Assembly (NCBI GenBank): GCA_937988705.1
Contig: CALKIA010000187.1
Coordinates: forward strand, 2,716 to 66,715
Source of the DNA: an uncultured Chloroflexota bacterium
GTDB taxonomy: Bacteria; Chloroflexota; Anaerolineae; Aggregatilineales; Phototrophicaceae
DNA: 64,000 nucleotides
Direction of reading: 5' to 3'
Positions 24,198 to 43,896 of the stretch are shown here, one piece after another. Positions within the stretch are counted from its first letter, which is position 1. The number at the start of each line of letters is the position of its first letter. The position numbers and the translations under genes are program-made. Under the pieces are notes generated by a model, which was given only the letters and a program-made list of their open reading frames with translations, did no database searches and was not told the origin of the DNA.

Positions 24198-24529
24198 CAC
24201 CCGGAGCATGTTCGAATCAGCTCCAATTCTGCTGGGGCAGCATATTGCAAGGCTTCTCTATCTGTTTGGCGAAGTTGACTTATAGGCTTGCCGAGTTCAA
24301 TCTACAATACACACTCCAGACATGAACAGATGTCGTATCGCAATGTGAGCTTAGTCACTACGAAATACGACATTATTTCCGTATCTTAAACGAAGGGAGT
24401 GCTGCTTTTATTTCACGATTTACTCGATCTCCATATGGTTAAGGCGGCAATCCGAGAGTGATGGCACATTAACCCTGTCGGTACTCACTTTTACTTATGC
24501 GTTGCAGCTCAAGCGGAGTCTCGGCAGCA

Positions 24530-25912
24530 ATGGCCATCGAGCTTTTTAGTGTTTCCTTGTTCGGCACAATTCTCATCTACGCGCCACTGCTGTCCCTGTC
24601 TGCTTTGATAAACCCTCGCGCGGCAGAGGCCATCACTCAAGCTTACCCGGATGCTACATCGCTCCCACCCGTTCTCTATGAGTTCGGGCAAGCTGTATTT
24701 TCCTCTGCGCCTGAGCCATCTGCCCCGCTCAACGCTCCACTCGACCCTTTCTATCTTGGCATCATTCCAACGCGCGGATGCAATATCGGCTGCAAATACT
24801 GCGATTTCGCCGCGCCCAAGCACATCAGCCCGGTGATGTCCCTTGACACAGCACAACAAGCAGTGGACGCCTACCTCACCCTGCTGAGGCAGGCGGGGCA
24901 TACCGATGGACAAATTCACTTCTTCGGGGGAGAGCCGTTTTATGCGCCCGTGCTCGTGCGCGATGTGGTTGAATACGCCGAGGCAGCGGCGCAAAAGCAC
25001 GGAATTACCTTGCGTTTTGAAGCGACGACCAACGGTGTCTTTGGCGCTGATCTGTGCCAGTGGATTGGCGATCACTTCGATGCGGTTGTTCTCTCGCTGG
25101 ATGGTTTGCGGCAAGACCATGACCGCCACCGTCCAGCACTCAACGGACGCGGAACCTTCGAGATCGTCGCCCGAACCGCACGCAGTCTCTCCGCCAGCCC
25201 ATGCGATCTCATCGTACGCGCTTGTGTCACCGCCGAGTCGGTGGCGTGTATGCCCGATTTCGCCCATTGGATTGGGGCAGAACTCAAACCGAGCATCGTC
25301 TGCTTTGAGACGCTGAGTGTCTCCCCACTCGCAGTTGAAGCCGGATTCGCCGCGCCCGATCCGCATGACTTCGCGCGCTATTTTGACCGCGCCACCGAAA
25401 TCCTGTCTACGTATGGGATTGAGACCGTGACATCTTCTGCCGATATCAGTGAAGCGCGAACGAGTTTCTGCCCGGTGAGCAAAGACGCGCTGATCGTTTC
25501 GCCGGATGGTGCGGTCGATGCGTGTTATTTGCTGGAAAGTGACTGGCAGGCACGCGGACTCGATATGCGGTTGGGGCAGCTGCAAAGCGGCACATTTGCG
25601 CTTGACTCTGCATCTTTGCGTCGCGTCCGCTCGATGCAGGTACAGAACCGCCCGCTGTGCGCCGACTGCCTGTGCCGCTTTCACTGCGCGGGCGGCTGCC
25701 ACGTTCACCACAACACCCACCGCGCACCGGGTCAATTTGACGACTGGTGCATCCAGACGCGGCTGATAACGATTACGCGGCTGCTGCGCGGTTTGGGCGA
25801 ACATGAGCGCGCCGACGCTTTTCTCGCTGACCGTTCCGCATCGGAAATAGCGGTTTGGCAACCGAGTGATCGCCTGATTACGCATCCAATCTCCCAGTCG
25901 GTACCCGAATGA
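24530..25912 (+). CDS. Radical SAM/SPASM peptide/protein maturase 1
   Basis: CNIGCKYC; FFGGEP; TTNG; SLDG. SPASM region C(PVSK)...AC...CADCLCRFHCAGGC...C. Start placed at ATG 24530 after GGAG. Confidence 0.92.
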   Translation: MAIELFSVSLFGTILIYAPLLSLSALINPRAAEAITQAYPDATSLPPVLYEFGQAVFSSAPEPSAPLNAPLDPFYLGIIPTRGCNIGCKYCDFAAPKHISPVMSLDTAQQAVDAYLTLLRQAGHTDGQIHFFGGEPFYAPVLVRDVVEYAEAAAQKHGITLRFEATTNGVFGADLCQWIGDHFDAVVLSLDGLRQDHDRHRPALNGRGTFEIVARTARSLSASPCDLIVRACVTAESVACMPDFAHWIGAELKPSIVCFETLSVSPLAVEAGFAAPDPHDFARYFDRATEILSTYGIETVTSSADISEARTSFCPVSKDALIVSPDGAVDACYLLESDWQARGLDMRLGQLQSGTFALDSASLRRVRSMQVQNRPLCADCLCRFHCAGGCHVHHNTHRAPGQFDDWCIQTRLITITRLLRGLGEHERADAFLADRSASEIAVWQPSDRLITHPISQSVPE

Positions 25913-27291
25913 GCCGAAACAGGAGTCCCAACATGAGCATGTACGTCTACACGATCCCGATTCAAGACCAGTACCTCATCTACCGACCGCTGCGTAAGTT
26001 GGCATTTGTCGGTAACCGGGCGCTCGGCACGATTTGTCAGAACATCGCGGCGGGCAAGCTCACCCGTGAGCAAGTCCCGGACTCGGTGCGTGCCTTCTTA
26101 GACGGCATCGACTTCTTCGCGGATGATCCGCCGCCGCCCACGCCGCCGGATCACGCCTTTCGACCCACCAGCGCCGTCCTGCTGATGACCAACCGCTGCA
26201 ATTTGCGCTGCACCTACTGCTACGCCAACGCCGGAGTACTCGCACCCGTCGATCTGTCGCTGGAACTGGCGCAAACCGTGATCGATCAAGTGGCGGCGAG
26301 CGCACAGGCACAGGGCGGATCGTACTTTGAACTGTGTTTTCACGGCGGCGGCGAACCGACCCAAAACTGGCAGGTCATGCAGCAGGCAACCGCCTATGCC
26401 CGCACGAAGCTGATCCCTGCGAAGGTGGTGATGGTCAGCAATGGGATATGGTCGCCCGCACAGCGCGAATGGGTGCTGACGCACATGGACGGCGTGACGA
26501 TCTCGTTTGATGGTCGCCCCTCAACGCAGGACGCGCAGCGCATTCTCCCCAATGGCGCAGGATCATCGGCGCTGGTGCTGGAGACGATCCACGCGCTTGA
26601 TGAAGCCCATTTCGATTACGGCATTCGGATGACGGCGACTGCCCCTTGGCGCGAAACGCTGCCCGCCGATGTGCGGTTCATCTGCGAGAACACGGGCTGT
26701 AAATCGCTGCAAGTCGAACCCGCGTTCAACACGGTGCGCGGCACCCACCGTGAGTCGTCGGAGGAGCAGAGTCAGGCGTTCGTTGATGCATTTATGGAAG
26801 CGTTTGAGATCGCGGCGCGTGCCGGACGCCAACTGACCTATTCCGGGGCGCGTCCCTGGTTGCTCACGATGAGCTTTTGCACCGCCCCCTACAACGCACT
26901 GATCGTCAATGCGAACCGTGAACTGGTGACCTGTTACGAGATCGCCAGTGATGCTCACGCGCTGGCAAACATCTCTACGATTGGCGCGATTGATGCCGCA
27001 GGCGAATTGACGCTCGATTCAACCCGGCGCGAGTCCCTGCTCAACCGCCTTGAAACCAAGCAGACGGATCACTGTGCCGACTGCTTCGCCCGCTATCACT
27101 GCGCGGGGGATTGCTACACACGCTCAACGAGTGTGATTGACGGGGAATTACAGGTAACAAGCGCGCGCTGCCAGATCAACCGGGCACTGACCGCTCAACT
27201 GCTGCTGTGGTACGTCATGGCAGGGGATGGCGTGTGGAACGGGCAAACAATTTTGACAATGCCAACTTCGCAACTATCAGCCATGTACTAG
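25909..27291 (+). CDS. Radical SAM/SPASM peptide/protein maturase 2
   Basis: CNLRCTYC; FHGGGEP; SNG; SFDG. SPASM region CTAP...TC...CADCFARYHCAGDC...C. ATGA overlap with the upstream gene; ATG 25933 after AGGAG is an alternative start. Confidence 0.93.
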   Translation: MSRNRSPNMSMYVYTIPIQDQYLIYRPLRKLAFVGNRALGTICQNIAAGKLTREQVPDSVRAFLDGIDFFADDPPPPTPPDHAFRPTSAVLLMTNRCNLRCTYCYANAGVLAPVDLSLELAQTVIDQVAASAQAQGGSYFELCFHGGGEPTQNWQVMQQATAYARTKLIPAKVVMVSNGIWSPAQREWVLTHMDGVTISFDGRPSTQDAQRILPNGAGSSALVLETIHALDEAHFDYGIRMTATAPWRETLPADVRFICENTGCKSLQVEPAFNTVRGTHRESSEEQSQAFVDAFMEAFEIAARAGRQLTYSGARPWLLTMSFCTAPYNALIVNANRELVTCYEIASDAHALANISTIGAIDAAGELTLDSTRRESLLNRLETKQTDHCADCFARYHCAGDCYTRSTSVIDGELQVTSARCQINRALTAQLLLWYVMAGDGVWNGQTILTMPTSQLSAMY

Positions 27292-27304: not shown

Positions 27305-28678
27305 ATGTCCGATCAAACCCATAAGCCCAATGAAGATGAGCCGCAAATCTTTGCCGTGAACAAAGGCGCGCGGGGTTGGCACTTCAATCGCCGGAACTTC
27401 CTGAAAGCGACCAGTGTCGCTGGTGCGGCGCTAACCGTAGGCGGATGTCAATCGCAGACTCCTACACCTACTAGCACATCCATGCCAACCAACACGCCGC
27501 CTCCAACCAATACGCCAATGCCAACCGGCGTGCCGCCGGCACGAGGCGCACGGGCGCATGCATCTGACGTTCAGTCAGTTGCTATCAGCGCGGATGGGAT
27601 GCTGCTCGCTTCTGGTAGCTCTGATAACACCATCAAGTTGTGGTCGCTGCCCGATGGCGCGCTACTCAACACGCTCGAAGGGCATGCATCTGAAGTTAAC
27701 TCAGTAGCCATCAGCGCAGATGGGACACTGCTCGCGTCAGGGAGTTACGATAATACCATCAAACTGTGGTCGCTGCCGGATGGCACCCTTCGCCACACGC
27801 TTGATGGGCATGCATCTATCGTTAACTCACTTGTTATCAGCGCGGATGGGATGCTACTCGCTTCTGGCAGTTCTGATAACACCATCAAGTTGTGGTCGCT
27901 GCCCGATGGAGCGCTACTCAACACGCTCGAAGGGCATACAAATTTGGTTGTGTCAGTTGCTATCAGTGCGGATAGGACGCTGCTCGCATCAGGGAGTTAC
28001 GATAATACCATCAAACTGTGGTCGCTGCCGGATGGCACCCTTCGACATACGCTTGAAGGATCTGCATCATATGTTCATTCAGTTGCAATTAGCGCGGACG
28101 GCACTCTGCTCGCATCGGCAGGGTCTGGTCAAAGTAGCGGCAGCAACGGCAACATCAAGCTGTGGTCGCTGCCAGATGGAGCACTTCTCAACACGTTTGG
28201 CGAACCTTATTCTGAAGTTCACCTACTTGCTATAAGCGCGGATAGTACTCTGCTCGCGTCAGGACGTTCCGGTGGTAGTACCATCGAGCTGTGGTCGCTG
28301 CCGGATGGCGTGATGCGTGGATTTATGTCGGACGTTTCCTTTTTTTCAGTTGACATTTTTTCAATTGCCATCAACCCGGATAATACTCTGCTCGCATCGG
28401 CGGGGAGGTCTCCCGGCGGTAGCGGTGGTAGTATCAAGTTGTGGTCGCTAGCGGACGGGACGTATCTACGTGATTTGATAGATATTGCTGTAAGTGAACC
28501 TGAATTTGAAGGAGCACAGTATTCCCCCGATGATGAAGGTAGCAGCGTAATCACCTTATCCTGTGGTTCACCTATTCCCGCCGGATCGACCTGCATCTGC
28601 AATTGCGTGACGGGCAGCGGTTGTTCCTGTGTGGGGCATCGTAGTGGCGGGGGTAGTCATTACTGGTATCCGAATTAA
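27305..28678 (+). CDS. Tat lipoprotein, 7-bladed WD40 propeller with Cys-rich HYWYPN tail (paralog 1)
   Basis: NRRNFLK; lipobox VGGC (Cys48); Pro/Thr linker; 7 WD repeats; tail CGSPIPAGSTCICNCVTGSGCSCVGHRSGGGSHYWYPN. Confidence 0.9.
   Translation: MSDQTHKPNEDEPQIFAVNKGARGWHFNRRNFLKATSVAGAALTVGGCQSQTPTPTSTSMPTNTPPPTNTPMPTGVPPARGARAHASDVQSVAISADGMLLASGSSDNTIKLWSLPDGALLNTLEGHASEVNSVAISADGTLLASGSYDNTIKLWSLPDGTLRHTLDGHASIVNSLVISADGMLLASGSSDNTIKLWSLPDGALLNTLEGHTNLVVSVAISADRTLLASGSYDNTIKLWSLPDGTLRHTLEGSASYVHSVAISADGTLLASAGSGQSSGSNGNIKLWSLPDGALLNTFGEPYSEVHLLAISADSTLLASGRSGGSTIELWSLPDGVMRGFMSDVSFFSVDIFSIAINPDNTLLASAGRSPGGSGGSIKLWSLADGTYLRDLIDIAVSEPEFEGAQYSPDDEGSSVITLSCGSPIPAGSTCICNCVTGSGCSCVGHRSGGGSHYWYPN
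27557..28060 (+). repeat. Four near-identical 126-bp WD40 coding repeats in A-B-A-B pattern
   Basis: Units start at 27557, 27683, 27809 and 27935. Units 1/3 and 2/4 are the closest pairs (252-bp period). Confidence 0.9.
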
Positions 28679-28697
28679 CTGAGAAAGTGCAGCGAAC

Positions 28698-29996
28698 GTG
28701 ACTGAGGAAAGTTTCAACCCTAATCAGAACGAAGACGAACCACAAGTGTACGCCGTGAACAAAGGCGCGCAGGGCTGGCAGTTCAATCGCCGGGATTTCC
28801 TGAAAGCGGCAGGGGTCGCGGGTGCGGCGGGCGCGATAGGGAGTGCCACATCACCGGCGCACGCCCAAGCCGGCGATGGCACTGCGCTGACTCCTGCCGA
28901 CCCGCCGCCTTTGGGCACGCGCGCTCACCGGCTCGGAGTCACTTCAATTGCTCTCAGCGGAGATGGAACGCTGCTCGTATCAGCGAGCAGCGATCAGACA
29001 TTCAAACTGTGGACATTGCCAGATGCTGCCCTCATTCGCACCCTCGATCGACATTTAGGTAGCGTTACCGCTGTGGCCATCAGTGAGGATGGGACATTGC
29101 TCGCGTCCGGCGGCGATTTCATGGATCGAACTATTCGTTTATGGTCGTTGCCAGATGCCGATTATCGCCGCACGCTGCGGTCAGGCCCTGCGCAAGCCAT
29201 CAAGATCAGTCCGGATGGCACCCTGCTCGTCGTAGCTGATGCGGATCATGCTATCCAGTTGCGATCACTGCCGACTGGCGAACTTCTGAATACATTGGAA
29301 GGTCACCGAGACCTGATTTATTCGCTCGCGATCAGTCCGGATGGAAGATTGCTCGCTTCGGGCGCAAGAGACAACACGGTCAAGCTGTGGTCACTGCCAG
29401 ACGGTGAACTCCTCCAGACCCTCGAAGGGCATACTGATGGAATAAAAGCCGTCGCGATCAGCGCTGATGGTCGGTTGCTTGCTTCCGGGAGTGAGGACGC
29501 TACGATCAGGTTATGGACACTGCCCGAAGGAACGCTGCTACGCACGATCAACAATCAATATAATCTTGAATCCCTAGCAATCAGTCCGGATAGTAGCCTG
29601 CTGGCCGTGGCGAGTTGGGATCGTACGGTCAAATTGTGGTCACTGCCGGATGGCATACTCGGCAATACGCTGCAAGGGCACTCTGACGTTGTCAGTTCCG
29701 TCGCGATCAGCGCCGATGGGACTCTGCTCGCCTCTGGAAGCTGGAATGGTACGCTCAAGTTGTGGTCACTGCCAGATGGAGTGTATCTGCGGGAATTTAT
29801 CGACATTGCCGCTAGTGGCCCTGAATTCGAAGGGGTGCAGTATTCCCCCCACGACGAAGGCGCCAGTGTTATCACGTTGCCTTGCGGTTCGCCGATTCCC
29901 GCAGGATCGACCTGTATCTGTAACTGTGTGACGGGGAGTTCCTGTTCTTGTGTCGGATTTAGCGGCGGTAGCGGTCACTACTGGTATCCGAACTAG
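28698..29996 (+). CDS. Tat-exported 7-bladed WD40 propeller with Cys-rich HYWYPN tail (paralog 2)
   Basis: NRRDFLK; AHA|Q SPase I site; 7 WD repeats; tail CGSPIPAGSTCICNCVTGSSCSCVGFSGGSGHYWYPN. Confidence 0.9.
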   Translation: MTEESFNPNQNEDEPQVYAVNKGAQGWQFNRRDFLKAAGVAGAAGAIGSATSPAHAQAGDGTALTPADPPPLGTRAHRLGVTSIALSGDGTLLVSASSDQTFKLWTLPDAALIRTLDRHLGSVTAVAISEDGTLLASGGDFMDRTIRLWSLPDADYRRTLRSGPAQAIKISPDGTLLVVADADHAIQLRSLPTGELLNTLEGHRDLIYSLAISPDGRLLASGARDNTVKLWSLPDGELLQTLEGHTDGIKAVAISADGRLLASGSEDATIRLWTLPEGTLLRTINNQYNLESLAISPDSSLLAVASWDRTVKLWSLPDGILGNTLQGHSDVVSSVAISADGTLLASGSWNGTLKLWSLPDGVYLREFIDIAASGPEFEGVQYSPHDEGASVITLPCGSPIPAGSTCICNCVTGSSCSCVGFSGGSGHYWYPN

Positions 29997-30020
29997 TATA
30001 TTCACATTGAGGATAAGCTC

Positions 30021-31361
30021 ATGACCGACGAAACACACAAACCCGAACACGGCGAAGACGAACCCCAAGTCTACGCTGTGAACAAAAGCTCACAAGGCTG
30101 GCACTTCAACCGGCGCAGCTTTCTGAAAGCTGCGGGAACATCCGCCGCCGGTATGGTCGCGCTGAGTGCATGCAGCACGACACCAGTTCCCACACCAACC
30201 ACTTCGCCCATACCACGCCCGACCAATACTTCACCGCCTACGGTTGACCCAGCCACAACCGAAGGGGTGGCCCATAAGGCAACCATCAATGCGACCGTGC
30301 TTAGCCCGGACGGCAAACTCTTGGCATCGCACTGCTCGGACAGCAGGGATAGGTCGCTCAAGGTCTGGAATACAGCCGACAAGCAGCTTTTGCTAGTGTG
30401 GGAGGATGAGGCGGAATCTCTGCGAGCTTCACCTGGTCCAGTGGTATTCACACCGGATGGCAATGTCCTGATTGCTGGCGCGCACCGTTGGTCATTGTCC
30501 AATTTTACCGTGATCGATGTGATCCCCAACCTAGGCGGCAGTGAATATGCGATCAGCCCCGATGGGACACTCCTCGCGGCGGGTAATGATAATGCTCTGA
30601 TCAACCTGTGGGATCTGAACGCCATGACGGTTCGTAAGATTCTCAGCGGACACCGAGAATACATCGGCGATCTTGTCATCACGCCCGATAGCTCGCGGCT
30701 AATTTCGAGCGATGGGGCGGGACAGATTAGGTTGTGGAGCTTGCCCGATGGGGAACTCCTTGCGGAGATCGAAGCGGACACGATGAGCGTTTCGGCTCTG
30801 GCGATCAGTCCAGATGGCCTGTATTGTGCATCGGGGGCAGGGAGTGGGAACATAAAACTGTGGCGTGTAGCGGATTTGACACTTATTCGCGACATCGCCA
30901 ATGATGGTGGTTGGGTCCACGCGCTCACCTTCAACGCAGACGGAACTCTGTTGGTATCAGGTGATAATGGGGGGATCCGTTTCTGGACACTACCCGATGG
31001 CGGTCTCTCCAATACTGTCGGCTTTAGGAGCGCTGTGCAATCGTTGGTGCTTAGCCCAGATAGCTCTTGGATGATTTCGGGACACGCATCTACAGTGGGT
31101 GGTACCGGCATCATCCGACAGTGGACACTGCCCGATGCCCAGCCCGCCGGTTACTACATCGACATTGCTGCCAACGATCCAGCCTTTGCTGGTGTACAGT
31201 ATTCACCAAATGACAACGGTGCGGGTGTGGTTACGCTGCCGTGCGGTTCACCAATTCCAACTGGATCAACCTGCATATGCAATTGTGTAGCGGGAAGTAG
31301 CTGCACTTGTGTGGGGCATCGTAGCAGCGGTGGCGGCGGACACTACTGGTATCCGAACTAA
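30021..31361 (+). CDS. Tat lipoprotein, 7-bladed WD40 propeller with Cys-rich HYWYPN tail (paralog 3)
   Basis: NRRSFLK; lipobox LSAC (Cys51); Pro/Thr linker; 7 diverged WD repeats; tail CGSPIPTGSTCICNCVAGSSCTCVGHRSSGGGGHYWYPN. Confidence 0.9.
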   Translation: MTDETHKPEHGEDEPQVYAVNKSSQGWHFNRRSFLKAAGTSAAGMVALSACSTTPVPTPTTSPIPRPTNTSPPTVDPATTEGVAHKATINATVLSPDGKLLASHCSDSRDRSLKVWNTADKQLLLVWEDEAESLRASPGPVVFTPDGNVLIAGAHRWSLSNFTVIDVIPNLGGSEYAISPDGTLLAAGNDNALINLWDLNAMTVRKILSGHREYIGDLVITPDSSRLISSDGAGQIRLWSLPDGELLAEIEADTMSVSALAISPDGLYCASGAGSGNIKLWRVADLTLIRDIANDGGWVHALTFNADGTLLVSGDNGGIRFWTLPDGGLSNTVGFRSAVQSLVLSPDSSWMISGHASTVGGTGIIRQWTLPDAQPAGYYIDIAANDPAFAGVQYSPNDNGAGVVTLPCGSPIPTGSTCICNCVAGSSCTCVGHRSSGGGGHYWYPN

Positions 31362-31376
31362 CGGAGGAGGACGCCC

Positions 31377-31814
31377 ATGCGTCAGTACAGTCGCCGCCAG
31401 TTCTTCCCGATGCTCGTGCAGGAATTGATCGTCAACGTCCAGCAGGTGCGGCAGGGGAAGCCCGCTTATACGCTGGAAAACCTCGGCGATTTGCCCGATG
31501 ACAAGCTGGCGGTCATCCGCCCGATGATCAGCCCGCTGTACAGAATCCGCGTGGTCGATGGACAGGTGTGCAGTCAGTTCAAAGACGATGCCGACGCGCC
31601 CGTGCGTCCGCATTTCCCCACCACACCGGAATATCTGGCGGCGTTCAATCGCTTCAACGGTCGGCAGTCGCTCCAAGAGATCGCAGGAGCGGTTGCCGCG
31701 GAATTTGTCTGGGAGACGGACGCTGCGTTCCGTTTCACGCGCGATTTGTTTCTTGCGCTGGCGGCGCAGGGTGTTGTCGTCCCGCAAAATCCGCTGGATA
31801 CCGACCTTGAATAA
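31377..31814 (+). CDS. Stand-alone PqqD/RRE-like protein
   Basis: GGAGGAGG RBS. The C-terminal half FNRFNGRQSLQEIAGAVAAEF...TRDLFLALAAQGVV follows the PqqD pattern (..DG..T..EI...L..EF......DV..FL..L...G). N-terminal SRRQFF. Confidence 0.65.
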   Translation: MRQYSRRQFFPMLVQELIVNVQQVRQGKPAYTLENLGDLPDDKLAVIRPMISPLYRIRVVDGQVCSQFKDDADAPVRPHFPTTPEYLAAFNRFNGRQSLQEIAGAVAAEFVWETDAAFRFTRDLFLALAAQGVVVPQNPLDTDLE

Positions 31815-32971: not shown

Positions 32972-34369
32972 ATGTTGATCTTGAACAACAATGCGCCATC
33001 GTCCACGCTCACGTCAATCCTCACGGGTGATCTGCCGGTTTTCGGGCAGACCACCGCCGAGTACACGCTGCTCTATGCGTCGGGGTGCGTGGTCGCCGCC
33101 GCCCCTGACGCGGCGGAGTCGATGATTCAGGCGTTAAGAAAGAGTGTACCGTCGCCGGGTTGGGGCGATACACTGCGTCGTCATGCCGTTCAAGCTGTGC
33201 AGCGCATGGATCAGCAGATACACGCCCCGTTCGCGCCGGAGTGCCTGACGCTCTATCTGCACAACCAGTGCAATCTGGCGTGCGCCTACTGCTACACCGA
33301 TCCCGATCACCTAGCGGGTGAGCGTTTGCAGCCCGAAGCGATTGCATCGGCGGCGACGCTGGTTGCGGAAAACTGCCGCGCCAAAGGACTGCCGCTCACG
33401 GTAGTGTTTCACGGCGGCGGAGAACCGAGTCTGTTTCAGGATCAGGTGGAACAGGCACTCGCCCTCGTTGATGAGGCGGCACGCCGTCACGGACTGCGGC
33501 AGTTCCGCTACATTGCCACCAACGGAATCATGCCGGAAACGAAAGTGCGCTGGTTAGCCGACCGCTTTGACCTGATCGGGCTGTCATGCGATGGCACGCC
33601 CGATATTCAGGATCGCCAGCGTCCGCGTCATGGCGGCGGCGGAACATCCGCCGCGATGGAACGGACGGCGCGCGGTCTACGAGATATCGGCAAGCCATTT
33701 CATATCCGCGTGACGATCACCCGTGCATCAATGCGCCGCCAAGCCGAAATCGCCGCTTATCTATGTCAAGTGCTTGCGCCGGACGAAATCCATTTTGAGC
33801 CAGTCTACTACGGCGGCAAAACGAACGGCGCTTCGGCGCTCGTGGAAGTCGAAGCTCGGGCATTCGTGGAGGAATTTCTTGCCGCACAGACGATCGCGCA
33901 GCAGCACGGCATTTCGCTCACCTGCTCCGGCAGTCGCGTTAACGCCATTCACGGCGCATACTGTCATGTCTTCCGGCAGGTTTTGAACCTCGTCCCGTCG
34001 GGGACGGCGACCGCGTGTTTCAAGCTGACGCGGCGCGAACAGCTTGAGCGGCACAACGCGCAGATCGGGGATTTCAGCAGCGAAGCTGGTTTCATGCTCG
34101 ATCAGCGCCAGATTTCAGACTTGCGCGAACAACTTGGCGCGCTGCCTGATGCTTGCATAGACTGTTTCAATCGCTTCCACTGTACCCGTTCCTGTCCGGA
34201 TGAGTGCCTCCTATCCGGTTCCGTTGATGCGCAGTCGAGTTTTCGCTGTCAGGTGCAGCAGCTTCTCGCCTACCGGCGCGTTCGCGCTGCCGCCGATGAG
34301 GTGTGGTCGCAGCGACGCGGAGAATCGATTGTCGGAGTCCACCTTGACCACGCTGAAGGAGTATCATAA
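32972..34369 (+). CDS. Radical SAM/SPASM peptide/protein maturase 3
   Basis: CNLACAYC; FHGGGEP; ATNG; SCDG. SPASM region CHVF...AC...CIDCFNRFHCTRSCPDEC...C. Confidence 0.92.
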   Translation: MLILNNNAPSSTLTSILTGDLPVFGQTTAEYTLLYASGCVVAAAPDAAESMIQALRKSVPSPGWGDTLRRHAVQAVQRMDQQIHAPFAPECLTLYLHNQCNLACAYCYTDPDHLAGERLQPEAIASAATLVAENCRAKGLPLTVVFHGGGEPSLFQDQVEQALALVDEAARRHGLRQFRYIATNGIMPETKVRWLADRFDLIGLSCDGTPDIQDRQRPRHGGGGTSAAMERTARGLRDIGKPFHIRVTITRASMRRQAEIAAYLCQVLAPDEIHFEPVYYGGKTNGASALVEVEARAFVEEFLAAQTIAQQHGISLTCSGSRVNAIHGAYCHVFRQVLNLVPSGTATACFKLTRREQLERHNAQIGDFSSEAGFMLDQRQISDLREQLGALPDACIDCFNRFHCTRSCPDECLLSGSVDAQSSFRCQVQQLLAYRRVRAAADEVWSQRRGESIVGVHLDHAEGVS

Positions 34370-35703
34370 TGCTGCTCTCCTCCTTTGATGAATACTTCCA
34401 AAACACCTCTCCGCTGCTCGATCTCGCGCCAGTGCGCGACTCGTGGCTGGCGCTTACACCTACCTATCAGGCTGGCGATTGGATTCTGCCACTTCCCCCT
34501 TGGCGGCATCGCCCTTATTCCAATTCCGGCGAACAGGCGTGGACGATTCTGCGCCGCGATCTCGCGCGAGCAGCTACCGACAAGCCGTTTTGTATCTATC
34601 TCCATGCGCCGTTCTGTTCTGCCAAATGCGGCTTTTGCGATAATTACTCTTTCAAGTTGGGCAATCAGCAGCAGGAACACATCACCGCCTACGTGGATCA
34701 ATTGTGCGCCGAACTGCGCTTGTGGAGTCAGCAGGGGAATCTCAGCCAGCGCCCGGTATCGACCGTTCACATGGGCGGCGGCACACCAACGTTTTTAGGG
34801 GCTGCGGCTCTGGAACAAATCGCGGCGTGCTGCCGCGAGTGTTTCGCCATTTCTGACGAAACTGAATGGGCGCTCGAATCGACTGCGCACGATCTGACAC
34901 CGGAGGTGATCGCCACGATGCATCAGATCGGCTATCGCCGGTTGCACATCGGCGTGCAAACGCTTGAGGATGCGGTGCGTGCGGCAATCGGACGGCGCTC
35001 ACGCGCTGGCGATGTGCTGAACAAGATTGAGTCGGTGTTGGCGCTCGGTTGGGTAGTCAGCGTGGATTTGATCTGCGGGCTGCCGGGGCAGACACTCGAT
35101 GGTTTCTTAGCCGGTATCGACCATCTGATCCGCATAGGCGTTCACGGTTTCTCCCTCTATGAACTGCTCGTCTACCCGCAGAATCAACGCTGGGCGGCGC
35201 GACATGGACTAGTTGATCCGGATCGCCATCAGCTAAATTTCTGGATGTTTCTCGCGGGGGCGCATCTCTTAGAACAGCGCGGATTCAAGAAAAATCTCTT
35301 TAACCATTGGGCAAATGAACAAGATAAAAACATCTACTTCACTTTCCCGACACGGAACGAAGATCTGTTGGCGATAGGCACCATTGCTGATGGCATATTT
35401 GGCGATTACCGCTATCGTCATCCGCGCTATGCGGACTATCTGCGTTCTGCTTCCGCCACCTCACCGGGGCTAGAAGGTGGGTTGTTGCACAATGCTTACG
35501 AAAAACGCCTTTCTCCATATGTTACGGATTTACTCTCCGCCCGTGGTAGTACGCGCTTTGCAGCGATGGTTCCCCAGCTGATGGAGATTTGGCACCAACA
35601 TGGATTGATCACATTGCAAGAGTCCGGCGCATTTGACCTTACACCATCAGGCTCATGGTTTACCGGCAACATGATCGACGAAGTTTATCAGCAGATCAGG
35701 TGA
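34369..35703 (+). CDS. HemN-like radical SAM enzyme (possible class C methyltransferase)
   Basis: IYLHAPFCSAKCGFC, HMGGGTPTFL, IGVQTL, VDLICGLPGQT and SLYEL motifs. Translationally coupled (TAATG) to maturase 3. Confidence 0.85.
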   Translation: MLLSSFDEYFQNTSPLLDLAPVRDSWLALTPTYQAGDWILPLPPWRHRPYSNSGEQAWTILRRDLARAATDKPFCIYLHAPFCSAKCGFCDNYSFKLGNQQQEHITAYVDQLCAELRLWSQQGNLSQRPVSTVHMGGGTPTFLGAAALEQIAACCRECFAISDETEWALESTAHDLTPEVIATMHQIGYRRLHIGVQTLEDAVRAAIGRRSRAGDVLNKIESVLALGWVVSVDLICGLPGQTLDGFLAGIDHLIRIGVHGFSLYELLVYPQNQRWAARHGLVDPDRHQLNFWMFLAGAHLLEQRGFKKNLFNHWANEQDKNIYFTFPTRNEDLLAIGTIADGIFGDYRYRHPRYADYLRSASATSPGLEGGLLHNAYEKRLSPYVTDLLSARGSTRFAAMVPQLMEIWHQHGLITLQESGAFDLTPSGSWFTGNMIDEVYQQIR

Positions 35704-35743: not shown

Positions 35744-36078
35744 TGTATGGTGCGAAAACCCTATCCATTCTCATGTATTCTCGACCAAAACCCGATCTCC
35801 TCTGGTAAGATAGCGCCTTTCATCGCTCGAATTGGTCACTGCTCTTCATGTTCTGGCACTCCCTTTATCAACTCCTTGCCTTCCTACTCGATATGGTACG
35901 CATTGTGCGGCAACCGCTCGATCAGAAAGACCTCGAAATCCTATTCCTGCGCCAGCAACTCGCCGTTGTTCGCCGTCGGCAGAAACGTGCACCTGGCGCG
36001 ACATCTTGCACGGTCTCATCCACGATTTTCGCCGCGTCGCTTAGCTTTCCCGTGCGGATATGGTTTTCGCACCCTACA
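35744..36078 (+). mobile_element. 335-bp internally deleted IS481-like element (MITE) with both TIRs
   Basis: TIRs TGTATGGTGCGAAAACCCTATCC and reverse complement TGTAGGGTGCGAAAACCATATCC (21/23). Contains only the transposase N-terminus (QKDLEILFLRQQL) and C-terminus (DILHGLIHDFRRVA). Confidence 0.8.
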
Positions 36079-36173
36079 CGGGATGGCTTATGCGATCCAG
36101 TCGGAGGAAGTACTCGACATGATGCGGCGTTACGATGTGTTGCCAGTGTAGTGCTATATAAGGAAGCGAAAAC

Positions 36174-36233
36174 CCGTTCACGCCCTTCACCCCCTTCACT
36201 TCTTCCCTCAGGATTTGTGAACGGTGTGAACGG
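36174..36233. repeat. Inverted array of 9-bp-period units (CCSTTCAC x3 / GTGAACGG x2)
   Basis: CCGTTCAC-G-CCCTTCAC-C-CCCTTCAC ... GTGAACGG-T-GTGAACGG. Confidence 0.6.
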
Positions 36234-36299
36234 TTCAGGGTCGGAAGAGATTCAGCGCTCTACTAACTCTAGAGATATTTTGCCGTTCCTATCGGAATG

Positions 36300-36363
36300 A
36301 CTTCAGCAATACGATCGCATCTCTGCCTGATTTCTCGCGTGGATAAAGTTTTCATCTACCACA
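36300..36363 (+). mobile_element. Orphan right end of the same IS family
   Basis: LQQYDRISA-stop followed by GGATAAAGTTTTCATCTACCACA. Confidence 0.45.
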
Positions 36364-36485
36364 GGTATTTCGATCCTATATGATCTCGCTGTGAAATGGC
36401 GCAAACCAGTCTGGTGTGATTCTGAGTTGAGAGTTTTCTCGCACGAAAAATGGGATTACGTCAAGCGGTGCATTAACTTCGACCC

Positions 36486-37714
36486 TGTATGGTGGAAAAA
36501 CTCTGTCTGACACCGACTATGCCTCAACTAGAAGGGAAGAACGTGCTATGCTTCTCTCCTGTTATTCGATATCGGAGAAGTGATTCCCTTACCAATGGTC
36601 TATCACTTCCTATTGTACTTGACTACGCTCATCTTCGACCTGTTTGCGTCCATCCGCCTTGCACCTGATGAGAAAGACCTGCAGATTGCGCTCCTCCAGC
36701 AGCAACTCCGCGTGCTGAAGCGCAAAGTCAAGAAGAAACCACGTCTCTCGCGACCTGCGAAGTTGATGCTTATGGCCTTGACGACCCATATGCAGCGCCA
36801 AACGCAGCAGTGGCAGCAGCGTTTGCGCGAAGCCGTGTGACCGGTTCAACCTGAAACGGTGCTGAACTGGCATCGAGAGCTGGTGCGTCGGGAATGGGCT
36901 TTTCGGCGACCAAACCATGGAGGACGGCCAAAGCTGGATGGCGAGATCGAGGCGCTGATCGTGCGGAATGTGCGCGAGAACCGCGCATGGGGTACGACAA
37001 AATCCAAGGCGAGTTGTTGAAATTCGGTTTCGTCGTCGATCCAACGACTGTCAAGAACGTCCTGCGCCGCCATCATCTCCTGCCCGCGCCCCAACGCGGT
37101 CAGGGTTCGTGGCGGACGTTTCTGAACCACTATCGACAGCAGCTGCTCGCGTGCGATTTCTTCACCGTCGAAACGCTGCATCGGCAAACGGTGTATGTCC
37201 TCTTCTTCATCGAGCTGGGAACTCGCCGTGTTCAGGTCGTCGGTTGTACCGAACATCCCACTTCCGCTTGGGTCACGCAACAAGCCCGGCAACTCTGTTG
37301 GTCGGTCGAAGGGCGCCAGCCAACGGTGCGTTATCTCCTTCATGATCACGATACCAAATTTCCTGCCTCCTTCGATCAGGTATTTGCTGCCCAGCAGATC
37401 GACGTCATCCACACTCCCATTCGAGCCCCGAATGCCAATGCGTTTGCCGAACGCTGAGTGCGTTCAGTTCGTCAAGAGTGTCTTGACCATCTGCTGATTT
37501 TGAATCAGCGGCATCTTGTCCATGTCCTCACCGAATACATCGACTATTACAATGTGCCTCGTCCTCATCAAGGACTCGATCAGCAAGCGCCTATTGCCAT
37601 ACCACGATCTCCGCAAGGAGTCATCCGATGCCGCGATGTTCTCGGAGGTGTTTTGCACGATTATTACGGCGAGGCTGCTTGAATTCCCCTCGGGTAAGGT
37701 TTTTCCACCTTTCA
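36486..37714 (+). mobile_element. IS481-like rve-integrase element, copy A (inactive)
   Basis: Left TIR TGTATGGTGGAAAAAC; right TIR GTTTTTCCACCTTTCA; transposase pseudogene inside. Confidence 0.8.
36595..37682 (+). pseudogene. Integrase-core (rve) transposase pseudogene A
   Basis: LACDFFTVE, HDHDTKF, NAFAER and RPHQG motifs. Stop at 36838-36840, a 1-bp deletion near 36980, and TGA at 37455-37457. Confidence 0.85.
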
Positions 37715-38112: not shown

Positions 38113-38967
38113 TTATCCTATTCGAGGAGGTTTGTTGCGCTGGCGGGTCAACAGTAAATATGCATCCTCCAACGTTGCATCGACGCTTACAGCCTCCAGA
38201 TGAGATGGGCGCTTGAGGGAGCGGACGATGCAGTAATCTCCCTGTGGGGTGATGCGAACAATCGATTCTGGCATTGTTAGCCGTGACAATTGCTCAATAG
38301 GTAGTCGAAGTTCATAAATCTGTCCGGCAGCTGCGGCACACAGCGTCTCGATGTCGCCAGCGTACAAAATATGACCGTCCTGCAGAATGATGACAGTCTG
38401 AGCCAGTCGTTCCGCCTCTTCGGGGAGATGTGTGCTAAAAATCGTCAATCCACTGTATTTCTTCACTAGACGATGGACGTTCTCTCGTTCCGTGACATCT
38501 AAACCGCGACTGAGCTCATCCAGCAGCAGCAGGCGGGGCTGGTTGAGCAGCGCTTGCGCGATCCCCACACGGCGCATTTGCCCGCTGGAAAGCTGGCGGA
38601 AGGGGTGATCTGCGAGGTCATCTAAATGCAGTGCGGCTAACACGCTTGCCGGGCTGCCGCCTCGCAGTCGAGCGAGATAGGTCAGGAGTTTGCGCGGTGT
38701 CAGGGCGGCGGGCAGTTCTACATCTTGCGGCAAGTAACCGATCTGCGTCCGCAGCGCGCGCTGATCGTGCCCGTAGTGCTGCCCCTCAAAGGACAATTCG
38801 CCGGCATCCGGCTGACACAACGTTGCCAATACCCGCAGCAGCGTCGATTTTCCTGACCCATTCGCCCCCAATAGGGCAACCACCCCGTCCGACAAGGTGA
38901 AGCTCACGTCTTGAAGTGCAACTTGTGAGCCATAGCGTTTACTCAGATTGCGGACGATCAGTGCCAT
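38113..38967 (-). CDS. ABC transporter ATP-binding protein (copy 1)
   Basis: GANGSGKS, LSSGQ, LLLLDE and STH motifs. Confidence 0.92.
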   Translation of the reverse strand: MALIVRNLSKRYGSQVALQDVSFTLSDGVVALLGANGSGKSTLLRVLATLCQPDAGELSFEGQHYGHDQRALRTQIGYLPQDVELPAALTPRKLLTYLARLRGGSPASVLAALHLDDLADHPFRQLSSGQMRRVGIAQALLNQPRLLLLDELSRGLDVTERENVHRLVKKYSGLTIFSTHLPEEAERLAQTVIILQDGHILYAGDIETLCAAAAGQIYELRLPIEQLSRLTMPESIVRITPQGDYCIVRSLKRPSHLEAVSVDATLEDAYLLLTRQRNKPPRIG

Positions 38968-39791
38968 TGTGTCAGTGAACGCCCCGACTCGTAAATCAGG
39001 AACAACCCAGCTATCAATACTATCGCTGCTAGGAGCGGCAGCGTGCTGGATAAGCTGAGATGGGCGATAATCGTGCTGGCGTTCGGTATATCAATGGAGG
39101 TCGCCAGCACGATCTCGCGCCACCCCCCGAACACCAGCAGTCCCCACACGAGCATCGGCGCGATCACCCCAGCGAAATTGTTCCAACGGACTGAACAGAA
39201 CAAGGCAATTCCGACTACGCCCAGCATCGGCCCGAACCAGATGAGCAGCAGTCGCCACAGGACGATCTGCAACCCTTGTGTCCAGACCACCAACAAAAGC
39301 AGCAGGGCGACTGTACCCGTCAGCGCCAAGATGAGCGCCAAGCGGATATAGAGAAATTCGAGCGGCTGGATCTGACTGAGCTGCTCAAACTCCCACAGGG
39401 TGCGCGTTGCTGGACGAAAGAGATAGGCTACGCCGATGACAGCGATCAAAGGGGAGAGGACGACCAGACAGAGAGTCGCTTCTGCCCCGCCGACGCCGAT
39501 ACTGAGCAGCACCCCGATCAGCATAACCAACCCGCTCGACCACCAGAACGGCGCTTCTAACAGGCTCATCTGCGCCCATGCTAAGCGCAGCCAATCGCGT
39601 ACCCCTCGGCGGGGGAACATCGGGACAGGCAGCGGTAATTCGGTACGCTGTTTTTCCAGCAGAGGCGTGATTGCTGCCAGCAATCGTCCCGTATCGGGTT
39701 CTGCGACAGCATACTGCTCTAAACGCGCGATCAATGGTTGCACATCGCCCAATTCAGCGCGTTCCTCCGGCGACAAATCATGTTCAATCAT
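38958..39791 (-). CDS. Membrane protein, probable anti-sigma factor/permease (copy 1)
   Basis: Soluble N-terminus plus about 6 TM helices; overlaps the 3' end of the ECF sigma gene. Confidence 0.65.
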   Translation of the reverse strand: MIEHDLSPEERAELGDVQPLIARLEQYAVAEPDTGRLLAAITPLLEKQRTELPLPVPMFPRRGVRDWLRLAWAQMSLLEAPFWWSSGLVMLIGVLLSIGVGGAEATLCLVVLSPLIAVIGVAYLFRPATRTLWEFEQLSQIQPLEFLYIRLALILALTGTVALLLLLVVWTQGLQIVLWRLLLIWFGPMLGVVGIALFCSVRWNNFAGVIAPMLVWGLLVFGGWREIVLATSIDIPNASTIIAHLSLSSTLPLLAAIVLIAGLFLIYESGRSLTQWH

Positions 39792-40320
39792 GGATCACCT
39801 CGGTGAGCGCTAAAAAACCTTTCATCTGCTTCAGGGCATGGAACAGGCGGCTTTTCACCGTGCCGACCGGCGTGTGCGTCACATCCGCGATTTCGTCCAG
39901 CTTCAGATCATGGTAGAAACGCAAAATCAGCACCTCGCGGTGATCGGGCGACAATTTTGCCAGCGCCTGAATGACCGTTTCCCGATCATGGGCGGCAAAA
40001 CCAGTGTCATCGGAAAAAACCTCCGCCTGTTCCTCAAAATCAGCGGCACGCTCGTAACGGTAGCGAGCGGACTTGAAATAGTCGCGTGCCAGATTCCGCG
40101 CCACAGTATAGGCCCATGACTTGAAGTGTGTCGGCGGCACGCCTTGATAGGTGAGCAGGCGTGTAAACGTTTCTTGCGTCAAATCGTCGGCCAGCGCCAC
40201 ATCACCGGTAAAACGACACAAGAACTTGTATAGAGGAACGTGATAACGCTGGACCAATTCGATGAGTGCGGCCTCATTCCCGTGAAGCACCTGTCGATAC
40301 AGCGTTTCATCGTCCAACAT
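39784..40320 (-). CDS. ECF RNA polymerase sigma factor (copy 1)
   Basis: ADDLTQETF, SWAYTVARNLARD and EIADVTHTPVGTVKSRLFHA motifs; GGAGGGG RBS before ATG 40320. Confidence 0.93.
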   Translation of the reverse strand: MLDDETLYRQVLHGNEAALIELVQRYHVPLYKFLCRFTGDVALADDLTQETFTRLLTYQGVPPTHFKSWAYTVARNLARDYFKSARYRYERAADFEEQAEVFSDDTGFAAHDRETVIQALAKLSPDHREVLILRFYHDLKLDEIADVTHTPVGTVKSRLFHALKQMKGFLALTEVIHD

Positions 40321-40975
40321 AGCCCCTCCGACGCCAAGCGCTGTAGGCAGCGTTGAGTGCAAAAAAGATCACCGCACCGCCAATCAGCAGGGCGCGATTG
40401 AGCGCCGGATCTAGGCCTGGCAGCGGGGTCGAGTGGTTGAACAGGAACAAGACCTGCGTGTAGGCGCCCTGAGAGGTCAACTCTCCGTACCAGTAACCGA
40501 CAATCACGCCGGCGGCGATCCAATAGCTGCCGCTGAGGTTGTTGACCAGGAGCGCCAAGCCCGCCAGATAGAGCGCGGGCGCGAAGGCGGGCAGCACCAC
40601 GTGCTTGAAATCGTACTCGCCATAGGCAAAATAGCACAACAGCGCCGCCAGCAGTCCGCTCAAGGCGATGAGCACGGCGGCTTCCAGTGCCCGCAGCAGC
40701 GGTACATACCATGAACGTTCGGCATAGGTGCGGCGCAGCTCATCGAACCCTTCTTCACGTTCAATTGTCATCAGATGCCCGCACGCCAGCCCGCCGGACA
40801 GCGCCAGCGCGAGTTCGAACACGCTCACCATCTGCGCCAACGATGGGAGGGACTGGCGGTTCGTCCAGACAATCCACCCAATGAGCATGTACCCCGGCAG
40901 GATCAAGAGGGGTAACAGGGCTGTGATGCCAAAGACGATGCGCGCTTCGTAATAGACGACGCTTCTAAGCGCCAT
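40307..40975 (-). CDS. ABC-2 type permease (copy 1)
   Basis: About 6 TM helices; IEREEGFDEL loop. Confidence 0.7.
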   Translation of the reverse strand: MALRSVVYYEARIVFGITALLPLLILPGYMLIGWIVWTNRQSLPSLAQMVSVFELALALSGGLACGHLMTIEREEGFDELRRTYAERSWYVPLLRALEAAVLIALSGLLAALLCYFAYGEYDFKHVVLPAFAPALYLAGLALLVNNLSGSYWIAAGVIVGYWYGELTSQGAYTQVLFLFNHSTPLPGLDPALNRALLIGGAVIFFALNAAYSAWRRRGYVGR

Positions 40976-43019: not shown

Positions 43020-43896
43020 GCTGCGCCTCTTTCCCGGAAGCAGCCATCACCGCCATATACCCTTCTTCCAGTTCAGGATTGACCAGCACACCCCGTCCCC
43101 AGGGGTTTTCCGGCGCCACGATGCGCACCTGCAAGCGTCCGTTCACTGTGCGACTGGCCGTGACCCGATACGCGCTTTCGATCTGCTCATACTCGCGTGG
43201 TTCAATGTCAAGCTGCCAGACACGCCCGCTGGCGTGCTGCATGAGCGTTTCAGGTGTACCACTGAAAATGACCTGTCCGCGATTGAGCACCGCGACGGCG
43301 GAGCAACTGGCCTCAATGTCGCCCACGATGTGGGTCGAGAGCAGCACGGTTCGCTCACCGGACAGGCGAGTGAGAAGATTGCGGAAGCGAATCCGTTCTT
43401 CGGGATCAAGTCCGGCGGTAGGTTCATCAACGACGATCAGCTGGGGATCACCGAGCAATGCCTGGGCGATCCCTAAACGCTGTTTCATGCCGCCGGAGTA
43501 ACCACCAACGCGCCGCTTGGCATCTTTTGTCAGGTTCACTTGCTCCAGCAGTGTTTTGACCTGCTTTTGTCGATCGGCGCGGGCTAAACCCTTCATCATG
43601 CCGATGTAATCCAACAGGTCGTAAGCGTTGAGACTCTTGTAGAAGCCGAAATCTTGCGGGATATAGCCTAGGTTTTTCCTTACAAAGCCCGGGTCACGCA
43701 TGACATCTACGCCCCCGACCCGCACCTGACCGCTCGTGACCGGCATAAGGGTCGTTATGACCCGCATCAGTGTCGTTTTGCCCGCGCCATTCGGACCCAA
43801 AAGCCCGAACATGCCCCGATTGATGGAGAGTGAAACGTCATTTAGTGCGCGGAATTTGCCATAATCTTTTACGAGATCGATGATCTCAATCTTCAT
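43012..43896 (-). CDS. ABC transporter ATP-binding protein (copy 1)
   Basis: GPNGAGKT, YSGGMKQR, VDEPTAGLDPEERIRFRNLL and STH motifs. Confidence 0.95.
   Translation of the reverse strand: MKIEIIDLVKDYGKFRALNDVSLSINRGMFGLLGPNGAGKTTLMRVITTLMPVTSGQVRVGGVDVMRDPGFVRKNLGYIPQDFGFYKSLNAYDLLDYIGMMKGLARADRQKQVKTLLEQVNLTKDAKRRVGGYSGGMKQRLGIAQALLGDPQLIVVDEPTAGLDPEERIRFRNLLTRLSGERTVLLSTHIVGDIEASCSAVAVLNRGQVIFSGTPETLMQHASGRVWQLDIEPREYEQIESAYRVTASRTVNGRLQVRIVAPENPWGRGVLVNPELEEGYMAVMAASGKEAQHV

Follow-up and report, generated by a model that had tools for sequence, protein, structure and literature searches.

What do several radical S-adenosylmethionine (SAM) enzymes act on when their genes surround three tandem genes for WD40 propeller proteins, and does the short tail shared by these proteins hold the answer? 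The question is raised by a window of 64,000 nucleotides (the whole stretch of DNA that was analysed) from an uncultured Chloroflexota bacterium (contig CALKIA010000187.1, positions 2,716 to 66,715). Our results suggest that the tail is probably a protein-tethered core, like those of peptides that are made on ribosomes and modified after translation (RiPPs), which is modified by the neighbouring radical SAM enzymes in the cytoplasm before a predicted export by twin-arginine translocation (Tat). The genes lie in one co-oriented run, which holds the three tandem targets, three radical SAM/SPASM enzymes (rSAM1, rSAM2 and rSAM3), a HemN-like enzyme, a small protein (orf145) resembling PqqD and RiPP recognition elements (RREs), and an inserted TIR gene:

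24497..25912, + strand: rSAM1, radical SAM/SPASM enzyme; PF04055 above cut-off, SPASM slightly under cut-off
25909..27291, + strand: rSAM2, radical SAM/SPASM enzyme with 7 SPASM Cys; predicted Cys-thioether maturase
27305..28678, + strand: target 1, 457 aa; leader/Tat signal, lipobox-like VGGC (Cys48), Pro/Thr linker, WD40 propeller, tail
27332..27406, + strand: conserved leader EDEPQ..AVNK..GW.FNRR.FLK, n-region of the Tat signal (counterparts at 28731 and 30054); predicted RRE-binding site
28478..28678, + strand: tail 1; hairpin, four-Cys module (28562-28606), one hexad CSCVGH (28622-28639), Gly/Ser linker, HYWYPN (28658-28675)
28698..29996, + strand: target 2, 432 aa; leader/Tat signal (AHA site, no lipobox), 7-blade WD40 propeller, tail
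29799..29996, + strand: tail 2; four-Cys module (29883-29927), hexad CSCVGF (29943-29960), HYWYPN (29976-29993)
30021..31361, + strand: target 3, 446 aa; leader/Tat signal, lipobox-like LSAC (Cys51), diverged WD40, tail
31158..31361, + strand: tail 3; four-Cys module (31242-31286), hexad CTCVGH (31302-31319), HYWYPN (31341-31358)
31377..31814, + strand: orf145, stand-alone PqqD/RRE-like protein of 145 residues; conserved N-terminal RRxF[F] helix
31955..32890, + strand: gene for a TIR_2 domain (PF13676) and a membrane region, inserted between orf145 and rSAM3
32972..34369, + strand: rSAM3, radical SAM/SPASM enzyme with an extra SPASM Cys (C412)
34369..35703, + strand: HemN-like radical SAM enzyme of class C type; HutW model, PDB matches HemN 1olt and NocN 9p2u

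Natural losses among relatives give a testable map of enzymes to residues, in which rSAM2 goes with the Cys units, rSAM1, rSAM3 and orf145 with YW[YH]Px, and the HemN-like enzyme with the His.

The tail, the leader and the family

The three tails begin at IDIA (28478, 29799 and 31158) and end with HYWYPN and the stop codon (28678, 29996 and 31361), and all three have the spacing C-x9-C-x-C-x-C-x5-C-x-C (Cys 420, 430, 432, 434, 440 and 442 in the first protein), just as the original prediction had it; the 6.88 Mb assembly contains exactly three copies of the motif. Forty-six tail residues are invariant, 34 of them with more than one codon. As uncorrected proportions among the three paralogs, nonsynonymous differences (pN) in the tail were 0.09-0.14 and synonymous differences (pS) 0.76-0.81, which is near saturation, and the pN/pS ratio was 0.11-0.17 in the tail, 0.03-0.06 in the four-Cys module, 0.12-0.23 in the leader and 0.42-0.60 in the WD40 part. 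Because synonymous sites are near saturation and pN is low, the tails reflect selection at the protein level, as had been proposed, and not recent copying; they are held by purifying selection. The accompanying claim that all six Cys and the hexapeptide are invariant stands within the three paralogs and fails family-wide, where four of the six Cys are invariant and the His and final Asn vary.

The tail alone had no match in Pfam, NCBIfam, PHROGs or PDB sequences and no usable match in the Atlas. An AlphaFold model of the isolated tail was poor (predicted local distance difference test score, pLDDT, 59; predicted template modelling score 0.40) and gave no VIA match at Z >= 2, and so is uninformative on the fold. 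For target 2 the model reached a pLDDT of 86, with the propeller (residues 81-367) at 94-98 and Foldseek matches to 7-blade propellers. The hairpin and four-Cys module of this model were moderately ordered (blocks of 72-91), and its last 23 residues (410-432) were mostly below 50; the distal tail is thus predicted to be disordered.

In each of the three targets the conserved leader merges into the twin-arginine motif. The TIGR01409 twin-arginine model scored 25.1, 32.6 and 17.9 bits for targets 1, 2 and 3 (cut-off 16.7), and Tat export is predicted from the sequences. A lipobox-like Cys is found in targets 1 and 3, target 2 having none, and such Cys together with Pro/Thr stalks occur in many relatives' targets. 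A search based on the tail recovered 60 candidate proteins, in 32 of which this leader and this tail flank WD40, SH3 or Ig-like middles. The family layout is therefore a conserved leader/Tat signal, a swappable passenger and a tail, and leader and tail are conserved around passengers as unrelated as PF16158 (Ig-like), PF08239 (SH3), a PF17851-like domain and WD40. The original prediction did not include the leader at the N-terminus, the Tat signal, the middle domain that can be swapped, or the genes for HemN-like and PqqD-like proteins. In many relatives one Cys lies in CL.D where the propeller ends and another near an N-terminal AH motif, both absent from the window's three proteins; these may form a propeller-closing disulfide.

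A profile of the four-Cys module matched 717 cluster representatives (50% identity) at E 0.001 and 381 at 1e-10. We surveyed tail subtypes in the best 150 of the 717 clusters, of which 148 were parsed; P0152 was not parsed and P0036 was discarded as a spurious repeat protein. In the Genome Taxonomy Database (GTDB), 142 stretches matched and 133 were confirmed, and the locus counts below cover 80 of those 133, as 67 loci. These belong to Chloroflexota, Acidobacteriota, Thermodesulfobacteriota, Planctomycetota, Actinomycetota, Bacteroidota, Pseudomonadota, Verrucomicrobiota and other phyla. Two matches on viral contigs were spurious, being in non-coding frames. Distribution is patchy: in the window's family the system is present in 5 of 120 sampled genomes, and in the window's genus in 0 of 6.

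Across the family, the tail consists of an invariant C-x9-C-x-C-[N/D]-C module (sometimes duplicated; the seed pattern favoured N), from 0 to 10 or more CxC hexads (C-x-C-x-x-x) and an optional aromatic end. Hexads after the four-Cys module numbered 0-10 among the 148 parsed best matches, counted from the last four-Cys-like match, so that some zeros are duplicated modules. The aromatic end, at the extreme C-terminus behind a flexible linker, has the general form xYW[YH]P[NDCT]. Among 147 ends, collected with a pattern that itself demanded the aromatics and the Pro, the Tyr and Pro were invariant and Trp stood at -4 in 145; position -3 was Y in 122, H in 23, R in 1 and F in 1, the last residue was N in 129, C in 6, D in 6, T in 4, S in 1 and G in 1, and the His was replaced in 23. 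Several variants were also observed. One locus has seven tandem targets with differing hexad numbers (L007:2-10213), and an eighth YWYPN end lies elsewhere in the same genome. A lone rSAM2 adjoins a target that lacks the aromatic end and carries about ten acidic C-x-C-D-S-D-x-G repeats (L073:10335-11879). In a third subtype (P0047, P0052, P0056, P0058, P0069, P0085, P0090 and P0124) the tail ends in a second, diverged module, PCT[PA].PVPPGY.C.CNC[VI]PG[RQY]. A C-terminal extension of about 130-200 aa that starts with CQAH.LL follows the hexads in L051:10220-10618, L048:10220-10720, L062, L066 and many of the profile-matched proteins, and had no Pfam match in the two that were scanned.

Spacing between hexads was 6 in 188 cases, 7 in 23 and 8 in 65. 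That 6 is the commonest spacing would suit a trimerisation needle or beta-helix held by disulfides or metal, to which the enzyme link would be secondary. Four end-less loci (L029:10220-10618, L037:10235-10648, L043:10205-10669 and L049:10190-10582) also have a Peptidase_S74 domain, above its cut-off, immediately behind the final CxCxPV hexad. Trimeric fibres are known to contain S74 domains, and a chaperone of this kind behind the tail hints at trimers; its self-cleavage would presumably restore the C-terminus of the unfused relatives. Nevertheless, S74 occurs only in end-less tails, the four loci are one clade, spacings of 7, 8 and more disrupt a regular helix, and an rSAM2 gene adjoins the S74 loci too. 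We therefore regard a needle or beta-helix as very unlikely.

Enzymes and the parts of the tail that they accompany

The 67 loci comprise 42 with the aromatic end and 25 without it, several loci sharing one genome, and in 58 of the 67 at least one system enzyme was found inside the fetched flank. (One locus, L061, was rejected as end-less and regrouped with the end-bearing loci, its target being frameshifted and His-less in a genome without any system enzyme; the target of L067 is cut by a contig end.) An rSAM2 orthologue adjoins the target in 24 of the 25 end-less loci, the exception being a 2.7 kb contig. None of these 25 loci has rSAM1, rSAM3, the HemN-like enzyme, orf145, a further radical SAM enzyme (rSAM5), a small PqqD or an orphan protein of 308 residues, at least one of which lies in the flank of 33 of the 42 end-bearing loci.

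We also searched 39 whole genomes, namely all 25 end-less ones and 14 end-bearing ones; the latter were picked because their loci were without some enzymes, and His-less ones were included knowingly. Orthologues of rSAM3 were found in 0 of 25 end-less and 11 of 14 end-bearing genomes; the corresponding counts were 0/25 and 10/14 for rSAM1 and 0/25 and 12/14 for orf145, and the HemN-like enzyme was absent from all 25 end-less genomes. An rSAM3 match in G019 (E 3e-53, 29% identity) was counted as a paralogue, and a YWYPN match in G027 was dismissed as chance. Six end-bearing loci without extra enzymes locally (L001, L004, L009, L011, L035 and L064) have them elsewhere in the genome (L010 is from the same genome as L004). 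On the rSAM2 tree the end-less loci do not group as a single clade (approximately unbiased test, p-AU 1e-46, on a quick tree). In L065, end and enzymes were lost inside a Bryobacterales group that has both; L065 and L060 represent nested losses, with no rSAM3 orthologue in either genome. Thus, rSAM1, rSAM3 and orf145 track the aromatic end, and rSAM2 is the only enzyme common to all subtypes. This bears out the earlier proposal that the tail holds two separately modifiable modules served by different maturases, since end-less relatives have one SPASM enzyme and end-bearing relatives carry the others.

Within the 14 end-bearing genomes, the HemN-like gene was present in 8 of 8 whose tails have the His and in 0 of 6 His-less ones; three further targets in one of the latter (G034) are also His-less. 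Counted by locus, where rSAM3 was complete with room beyond it, the gene was found in 27 of 27 loci with the His (window included) and in 0 of 7 without it. This count left out six duplicate or truncated rows and three short-flank rows, and L070 was typed from the sole target of its genome. A metagenome search with a pattern that excludes the His gave 14 loci, 13 of them with a target, and none with a HemN-like gene, as predicted beforehand; several of these are short or from the same organism. On the rSAM3 tree the His/HemN pattern needs 4-5 changes. In L085, also left out of the locus count, an unfused rSAM3 abuts orf145 where the four nearest relatives have an rSAM3-HemN fusion. Our results therefore show that the HemN-like enzyme tracks the His of HYWYPN. 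An H-x-W link, one of those named in the original prediction, is unlikely as the core of the end because the His is replaceable (23 of 147 ends) and its loss follows the HemN-like enzyme and not the SPASM enzymes; W-x-x-N, Y-x-Y and [YHF]-P-[NDCT] links are possible. In His-less loci of one clade, a hydrophobic protein of 630-670 aa with no NCBIfam match takes the place of the HemN-like gene (L078:877-2853, L087:5704-7593 and L090:4075-6072).

No radical SAM enzyme of the cluster reaches any curated family cut-off. The best NCBIfam model for the SPASM enzymes is PapB (83-121 bits; cut-off 340), and the best PDB sequence match of rSAM2 is CteB (5wgg, E 1e-14). Seven rSAM2 cysteines (C324, C342, C389, C392, C398, C402 and C421) are invariant in sets of 40 and 24 sequences, from which we infer an open auxiliary cluster I (AuxI) site. 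Extra conserved Cys beyond these seven occur in rSAM1 and rSAM3; rSAM1 has 7 SPASM Cys and an invariant C243 in 31 orthologues. In relatives, rSAM3 is often fused to a HemN-like domain. For orf145 there was no Pfam match; its PDB profile match to PqqD was weak (3g2b, E 0.029), and its predicted structure in the Atlas aligned with PqqD at a template modelling score of 0.74 by target and 0.54 by query. It begins (31377-31420) with RRxF[F] followed by an amphipathic helix and no hydrophobic stretch, and is thus a look-alike of the Tat motif. The HemN-like enzyme scored 211 bits on the HutW model (cut-off 400), and its CxxxCxxC is intact in 27 of 28 orthologues. HemW heme chaperones, whose motif is given as CXHNX2YW in the available part of PMC13495026, were rejected as its family, HNxxYW being present in 0 of 28.

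The orphan protein of 308 residues is present in most relatives, not in the window cluster. It has seven invariant Cys (L059:4560-5483 and L023:6604-7524), was seen only in loci whose tails have the His, and is fused to rSAM5 in L008:4703-6664. We take it to resemble the Fe-S hydroxylases of the U32 family, a likeness that Pfam, NCBIfam and PDB do not support. A sixth radical SAM gene (385 aa) lies between rSAM2 and orf145 in two Chloroflexota clusters (L076:12477-13631 and L075:9495-10652), and Acidobacteria clusters also enclose a gene for an NHL-repeat protein, which persists even where the enzymes have gone (L008:6707-8914, L014, L020, L032, L065 and L085).

As for the window's other genes, the TIR gene was rejected as a member of the system, since a single homologue was found among the fetched loci (L066, opposite strand). 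Scans for promoters and terminators gave signals at chance level. Just downstream of the cluster, two near-identical, partly broken elements (35747-37700 and 44044-45132), which we take to be integrase-like, flank a block with ABC-transporter-like and sigma-factor-like genes (38113-43896).

The proposed pathway and its rivals

The residues at Cys+3 of the hexads are restricted. The first hexad Cys is followed at that distance by V, N, D, Q, I, L, M or E; for the second Cys the residue is V, H, I, Y, N, D or Q. Gly, Ser, Thr or Pro occupied these two positions in 1 and 0 of 588 hexads. By comparison, the position between the two held one of these residues in 418 of 588 cases, and linkers did so in 1926 of 3436 (56%), the sequences being related and hence not independent. 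Because a turn would admit Gly, we read the Cys+3 residues as side-chain acceptors. An alternative is that the Cys are free thiolates that bind metal or an Fe-S cluster, the radical SAM enzymes building or inserting a separate cofactor. Tat export is typical of cofactor-loaded proteins, and HemN-like proteins include heme-handling enzymes; moreover, the four-Cys module recalls what we take to be half a zinc ribbon (CGxxIPxGAxxC), and the CxC repeats presumably resemble metallothioneins. Metal binding leaves unexplained the ban on G/S/T/P at both Cys+3 positions, the tracking of one His by one enzyme at the level of a single residue, and the RRE-type helpers; the absence of the HemW motif from the 28 HemN-like orthologues and of a Pfam, NCBIfam or PDB sequence match for the tail also argues against it. 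We consider free thiolates quite unlikely.

The preferred reading, modification of a tethered core, can be set out in steps. First, the RRE domains (the N-termini of the SPASM enzymes, and orf145) would bind the leader ahead of the twin arginines; that the leader is an RRE ligand is what we infer from its conservation around unrelated passengers. Second, rSAM2 would join each C-x-C Cys to its i+3 residue (here Asn, Val, Val and His/Phe) by a thioether (ranthionine), a step that we favour slightly. Third, rSAM1 and rSAM3 with orf145 would cross-link or oxidise Y-W-[Y/H]-P-[N/D/C/T], most simply into aromatic-to-C-beta cyclophanes, for which the chances seem evenly balanced. Fourth, the HemN-like enzyme probably acts on the His; by analogy with class C enzymes acting on thiazoles, its most likely action would be C-methylation of the imidazole, which we think could equally well prove right or wrong. 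Finally, signal peptidase would cut off the leader with the signal, and the modified tail would stay on a periplasmic or lipid-anchored protein, where it would most likely form a rigid binding or metal-holding tip. No dedicated protease would be needed, because signal peptidase would take the leader off with the signal. No protease or transporter family was found among the gene families common to at least 3 loci, so the leader is probably lost to signal peptidase and the tail probably remains attached.

The same finding bears on the view that the tail is a true RiPP core, whose modified C-terminal piece is cut at the Gly/Ser linker and released, the passenger being merely a carrier. Such a product would fit an aromatic end that is always extreme C-terminal behind a flexible linker, the agreement of Y-W-[YH]-P-[ND] with dynobactin W(i)-N(i+3) and triceptide aromatic(i)-C-beta(i+2) links (as given in the available text of PMC11002830), and the use of up to five or six enzymes for six residues. 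With protease and transporter families absent from those shared by at least 3 loci, the original suggestion of the Gly spacer as a cleavage site finds no support, and some tails have no linker (CTCVPVHYWYPN). Many targets have a lipobox-like Cys and Pro/Thr stalks, and a genome may keep as many as 7 or 8 paralogues whose ends are nearly identical and whose propellers differ (L007), which argues that the passenger matters. Release of the core is, on this evidence, unlikely.

Several points weigh against modification of a tethered core as set out above. All of the tail chemistry is deduced, and rSAM1, rSAM2 and rSAM3 are far under every curated family cut-off. The six active-site profile residues of the ranthisynthase CteB are F,F,T,S,H,Q (available part of PMC10288494). 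By a regular-expression reading, and with CteB and part of ChlB as the only references, the corresponding residues are D/G,F,A/T,S,Y,L in rSAM1, Y,H,A/T/V,S,Y/F,E in rSAM2 and F/Y,H,A,S,F,K in rSAM3; those of rSAM2 match CteB poorly and at positions one and two resemble ChlB (Y,H,Q,S), and CteB's Phe is found in rSAM1. In the four-Cys module, the first and last Cys are followed at +3 by Pro and mostly Gly, which puts them outside the Cys+3 rule; they may form a disulfide or bind metal. Co-loss of end and enzymes comes down to 3 independent pairs, 3/3 concordant (p 0.25), and the His/HemN split likewise to 3 independent pairs, all concordant (p 0.25). Of the six genomes without the His, just four are informative, because G025 and G032 are without most or all system enzymes. 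The source genomes are all metagenome-assembled, with completeness mostly unknown. Finally, rSAM5 and the small PqqD, which occur in most relatives, are absent from the window cluster and were not found in G000 (87.8% complete).

Altogether, leader/Tat signal and tail could form a portable two-part tag for whatever folded domain is set between them, in which fused thioether rings and a cross-linked, His-C-methylated aromatic hexapeptide make a protein-tethered cofactor or a metal- or ligand-binding head at the cell surface; we put this forward tentatively. Because the passenger has already been swapped in nature, the tag may serve for putting macrocycles on a chosen protein.

Relation to known systems

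We found no published description of this combination of tail and enzymes, and HYWYPN was unmatched in the literature that the search reached, subscription papers lying mostly beyond it. None of the publications found with YWYPN, YWHPN, CGSPIP, CTCNCV or CICNCV was tied to radical SAM enzymes by its title or the start of its abstract. The system is real and widespread, and apparently new to print. Few examples are on record of radical SAM cross-linking of whole proteins (QhpC; CrpA, 2026). If our reading is true, it extends such cross-linking to hundreds of exported bacterial proteins in at least 8 phyla, with up to six radical SAM domains per tail; a RiPP leader would double as an export signal, and the HemN-like enzyme would be the first class C radical SAM enzyme to act on a protein histidine, new chemistry as far as our searches reach.

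Class C methyltransferases (TbtI, PbtM2/3, NosN/NocN and ChuW/HutW) share with the HemN-like enzyme its two domains, its CxxxCxxC and its PDB matches to HemN and NocN. PbtM2/3 methylate thiazole carbons (available part of PMC11285071). The HemN-like gene differs in tracking a His in a protein tail and in its HutW score (211 against 400), and we found no publication on a class C enzyme acting on His.

Ranthipeptides (CteB/CteA of the SCIFF type, and PapB/PapA) resemble the system in their seven-Cys SPASM enzymes, and provide the best PDB match (5wgg) and the best NCBIfam model (PapB); unlike the targets, their precursors are short peptides, the active-site profile differs, and the Cys number here is not six. 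The original assignment to a SCIFF-type six-Cys core is unsupported, because the Cys number varies in relatives and the SCIFF maturase model TIGR03974 gives the enzymes 55-109 bits (cut-off 425). Nor do the targets have the form of a SCIFF precursor (six Cys in about 45 residues), being 432-457 aa long, with 0-10 hexads in relatives. For the aromatic end, the aromatic(i)-C-beta(i+2) and W(i)-N(i+3) links of triceptides (XncB, OscB, HaaB and YhhB; ChlB) and dynobactin, as described in the accessible part of PMC11002830, fit Y-W-[YHF]-P-[NDCT]. Such a motif, which is not itself a cross-link, is present in the 147 ends, with Y, H or F at -3 in 146 and N, C, D, T or S at -1 in 146, and ChlB's Tyr and His profile residues are common to rSAM2 and rSAM3. 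Triceptides and dynobactin differ from the targets in being free short peptides, each made with a single enzyme. Membership was rejected for DynA (51-67 bits; cut-off 450) and for the cyclophane models GrrM, YhhB, AmcB and FxsB (at most 51 bits; cut-offs 310-445).

In QhpC, an RRE-guided radical SAM enzyme (QhpD) makes Cys-Asp and Cys-Glu thioethers in a protein subunit, as summarised in the available text of PMC13692751. QhpC, unlike the targets, is a small subunit, fixed within one enzyme and lacking a swappable passenger, and the QhpD family was rejected (64-113 bits on TIGR03906; cut-off 453). The closest published system is CrpA/CrpC. For CrpA/CrpB/CrpC of Methanococcus voltae (TIGR04463), ranthionines were shown by mass spectrometry (PMC13692751, 2026); according to the accessible sections, CrpA has C-X-X-Q/D motifs with thioethers at CAVD, CAGM/D and CPLV, and the seven-Cys SPASM pattern of CrpC leaves one iron free for a substrate Cys. 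As far as those sections go, Crp is like the window system in pairing a seven-Cys SPASM enzyme and an RRE with a full-size substrate that has a conserved N-terminal leader and C-terminal Cys repeats; the targets are likewise large, with a conserved N-terminal leader and C-terminal C-X-X-[D/Q/aliphatic] repeats. It is unlike the window system in being archaeal and having one enzyme, and a Tat signal, a propeller and an aromatic end are not described in the available sections of the paper; its supplement text, as available, contains no WD40, twin-arginine, YWYP or CGSPIP. TIGR04463 membership was rejected (rSAM1 51 and rSAM3 32 bits against a cut-off of 525; for rSAM2 the model was not among the best 25). 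The system thus works like CrpA/CrpC and QhpC/QhpD, and by the family cut-offs it stands outside those two as well as the SCIFF, triceptide and dynobactin families.

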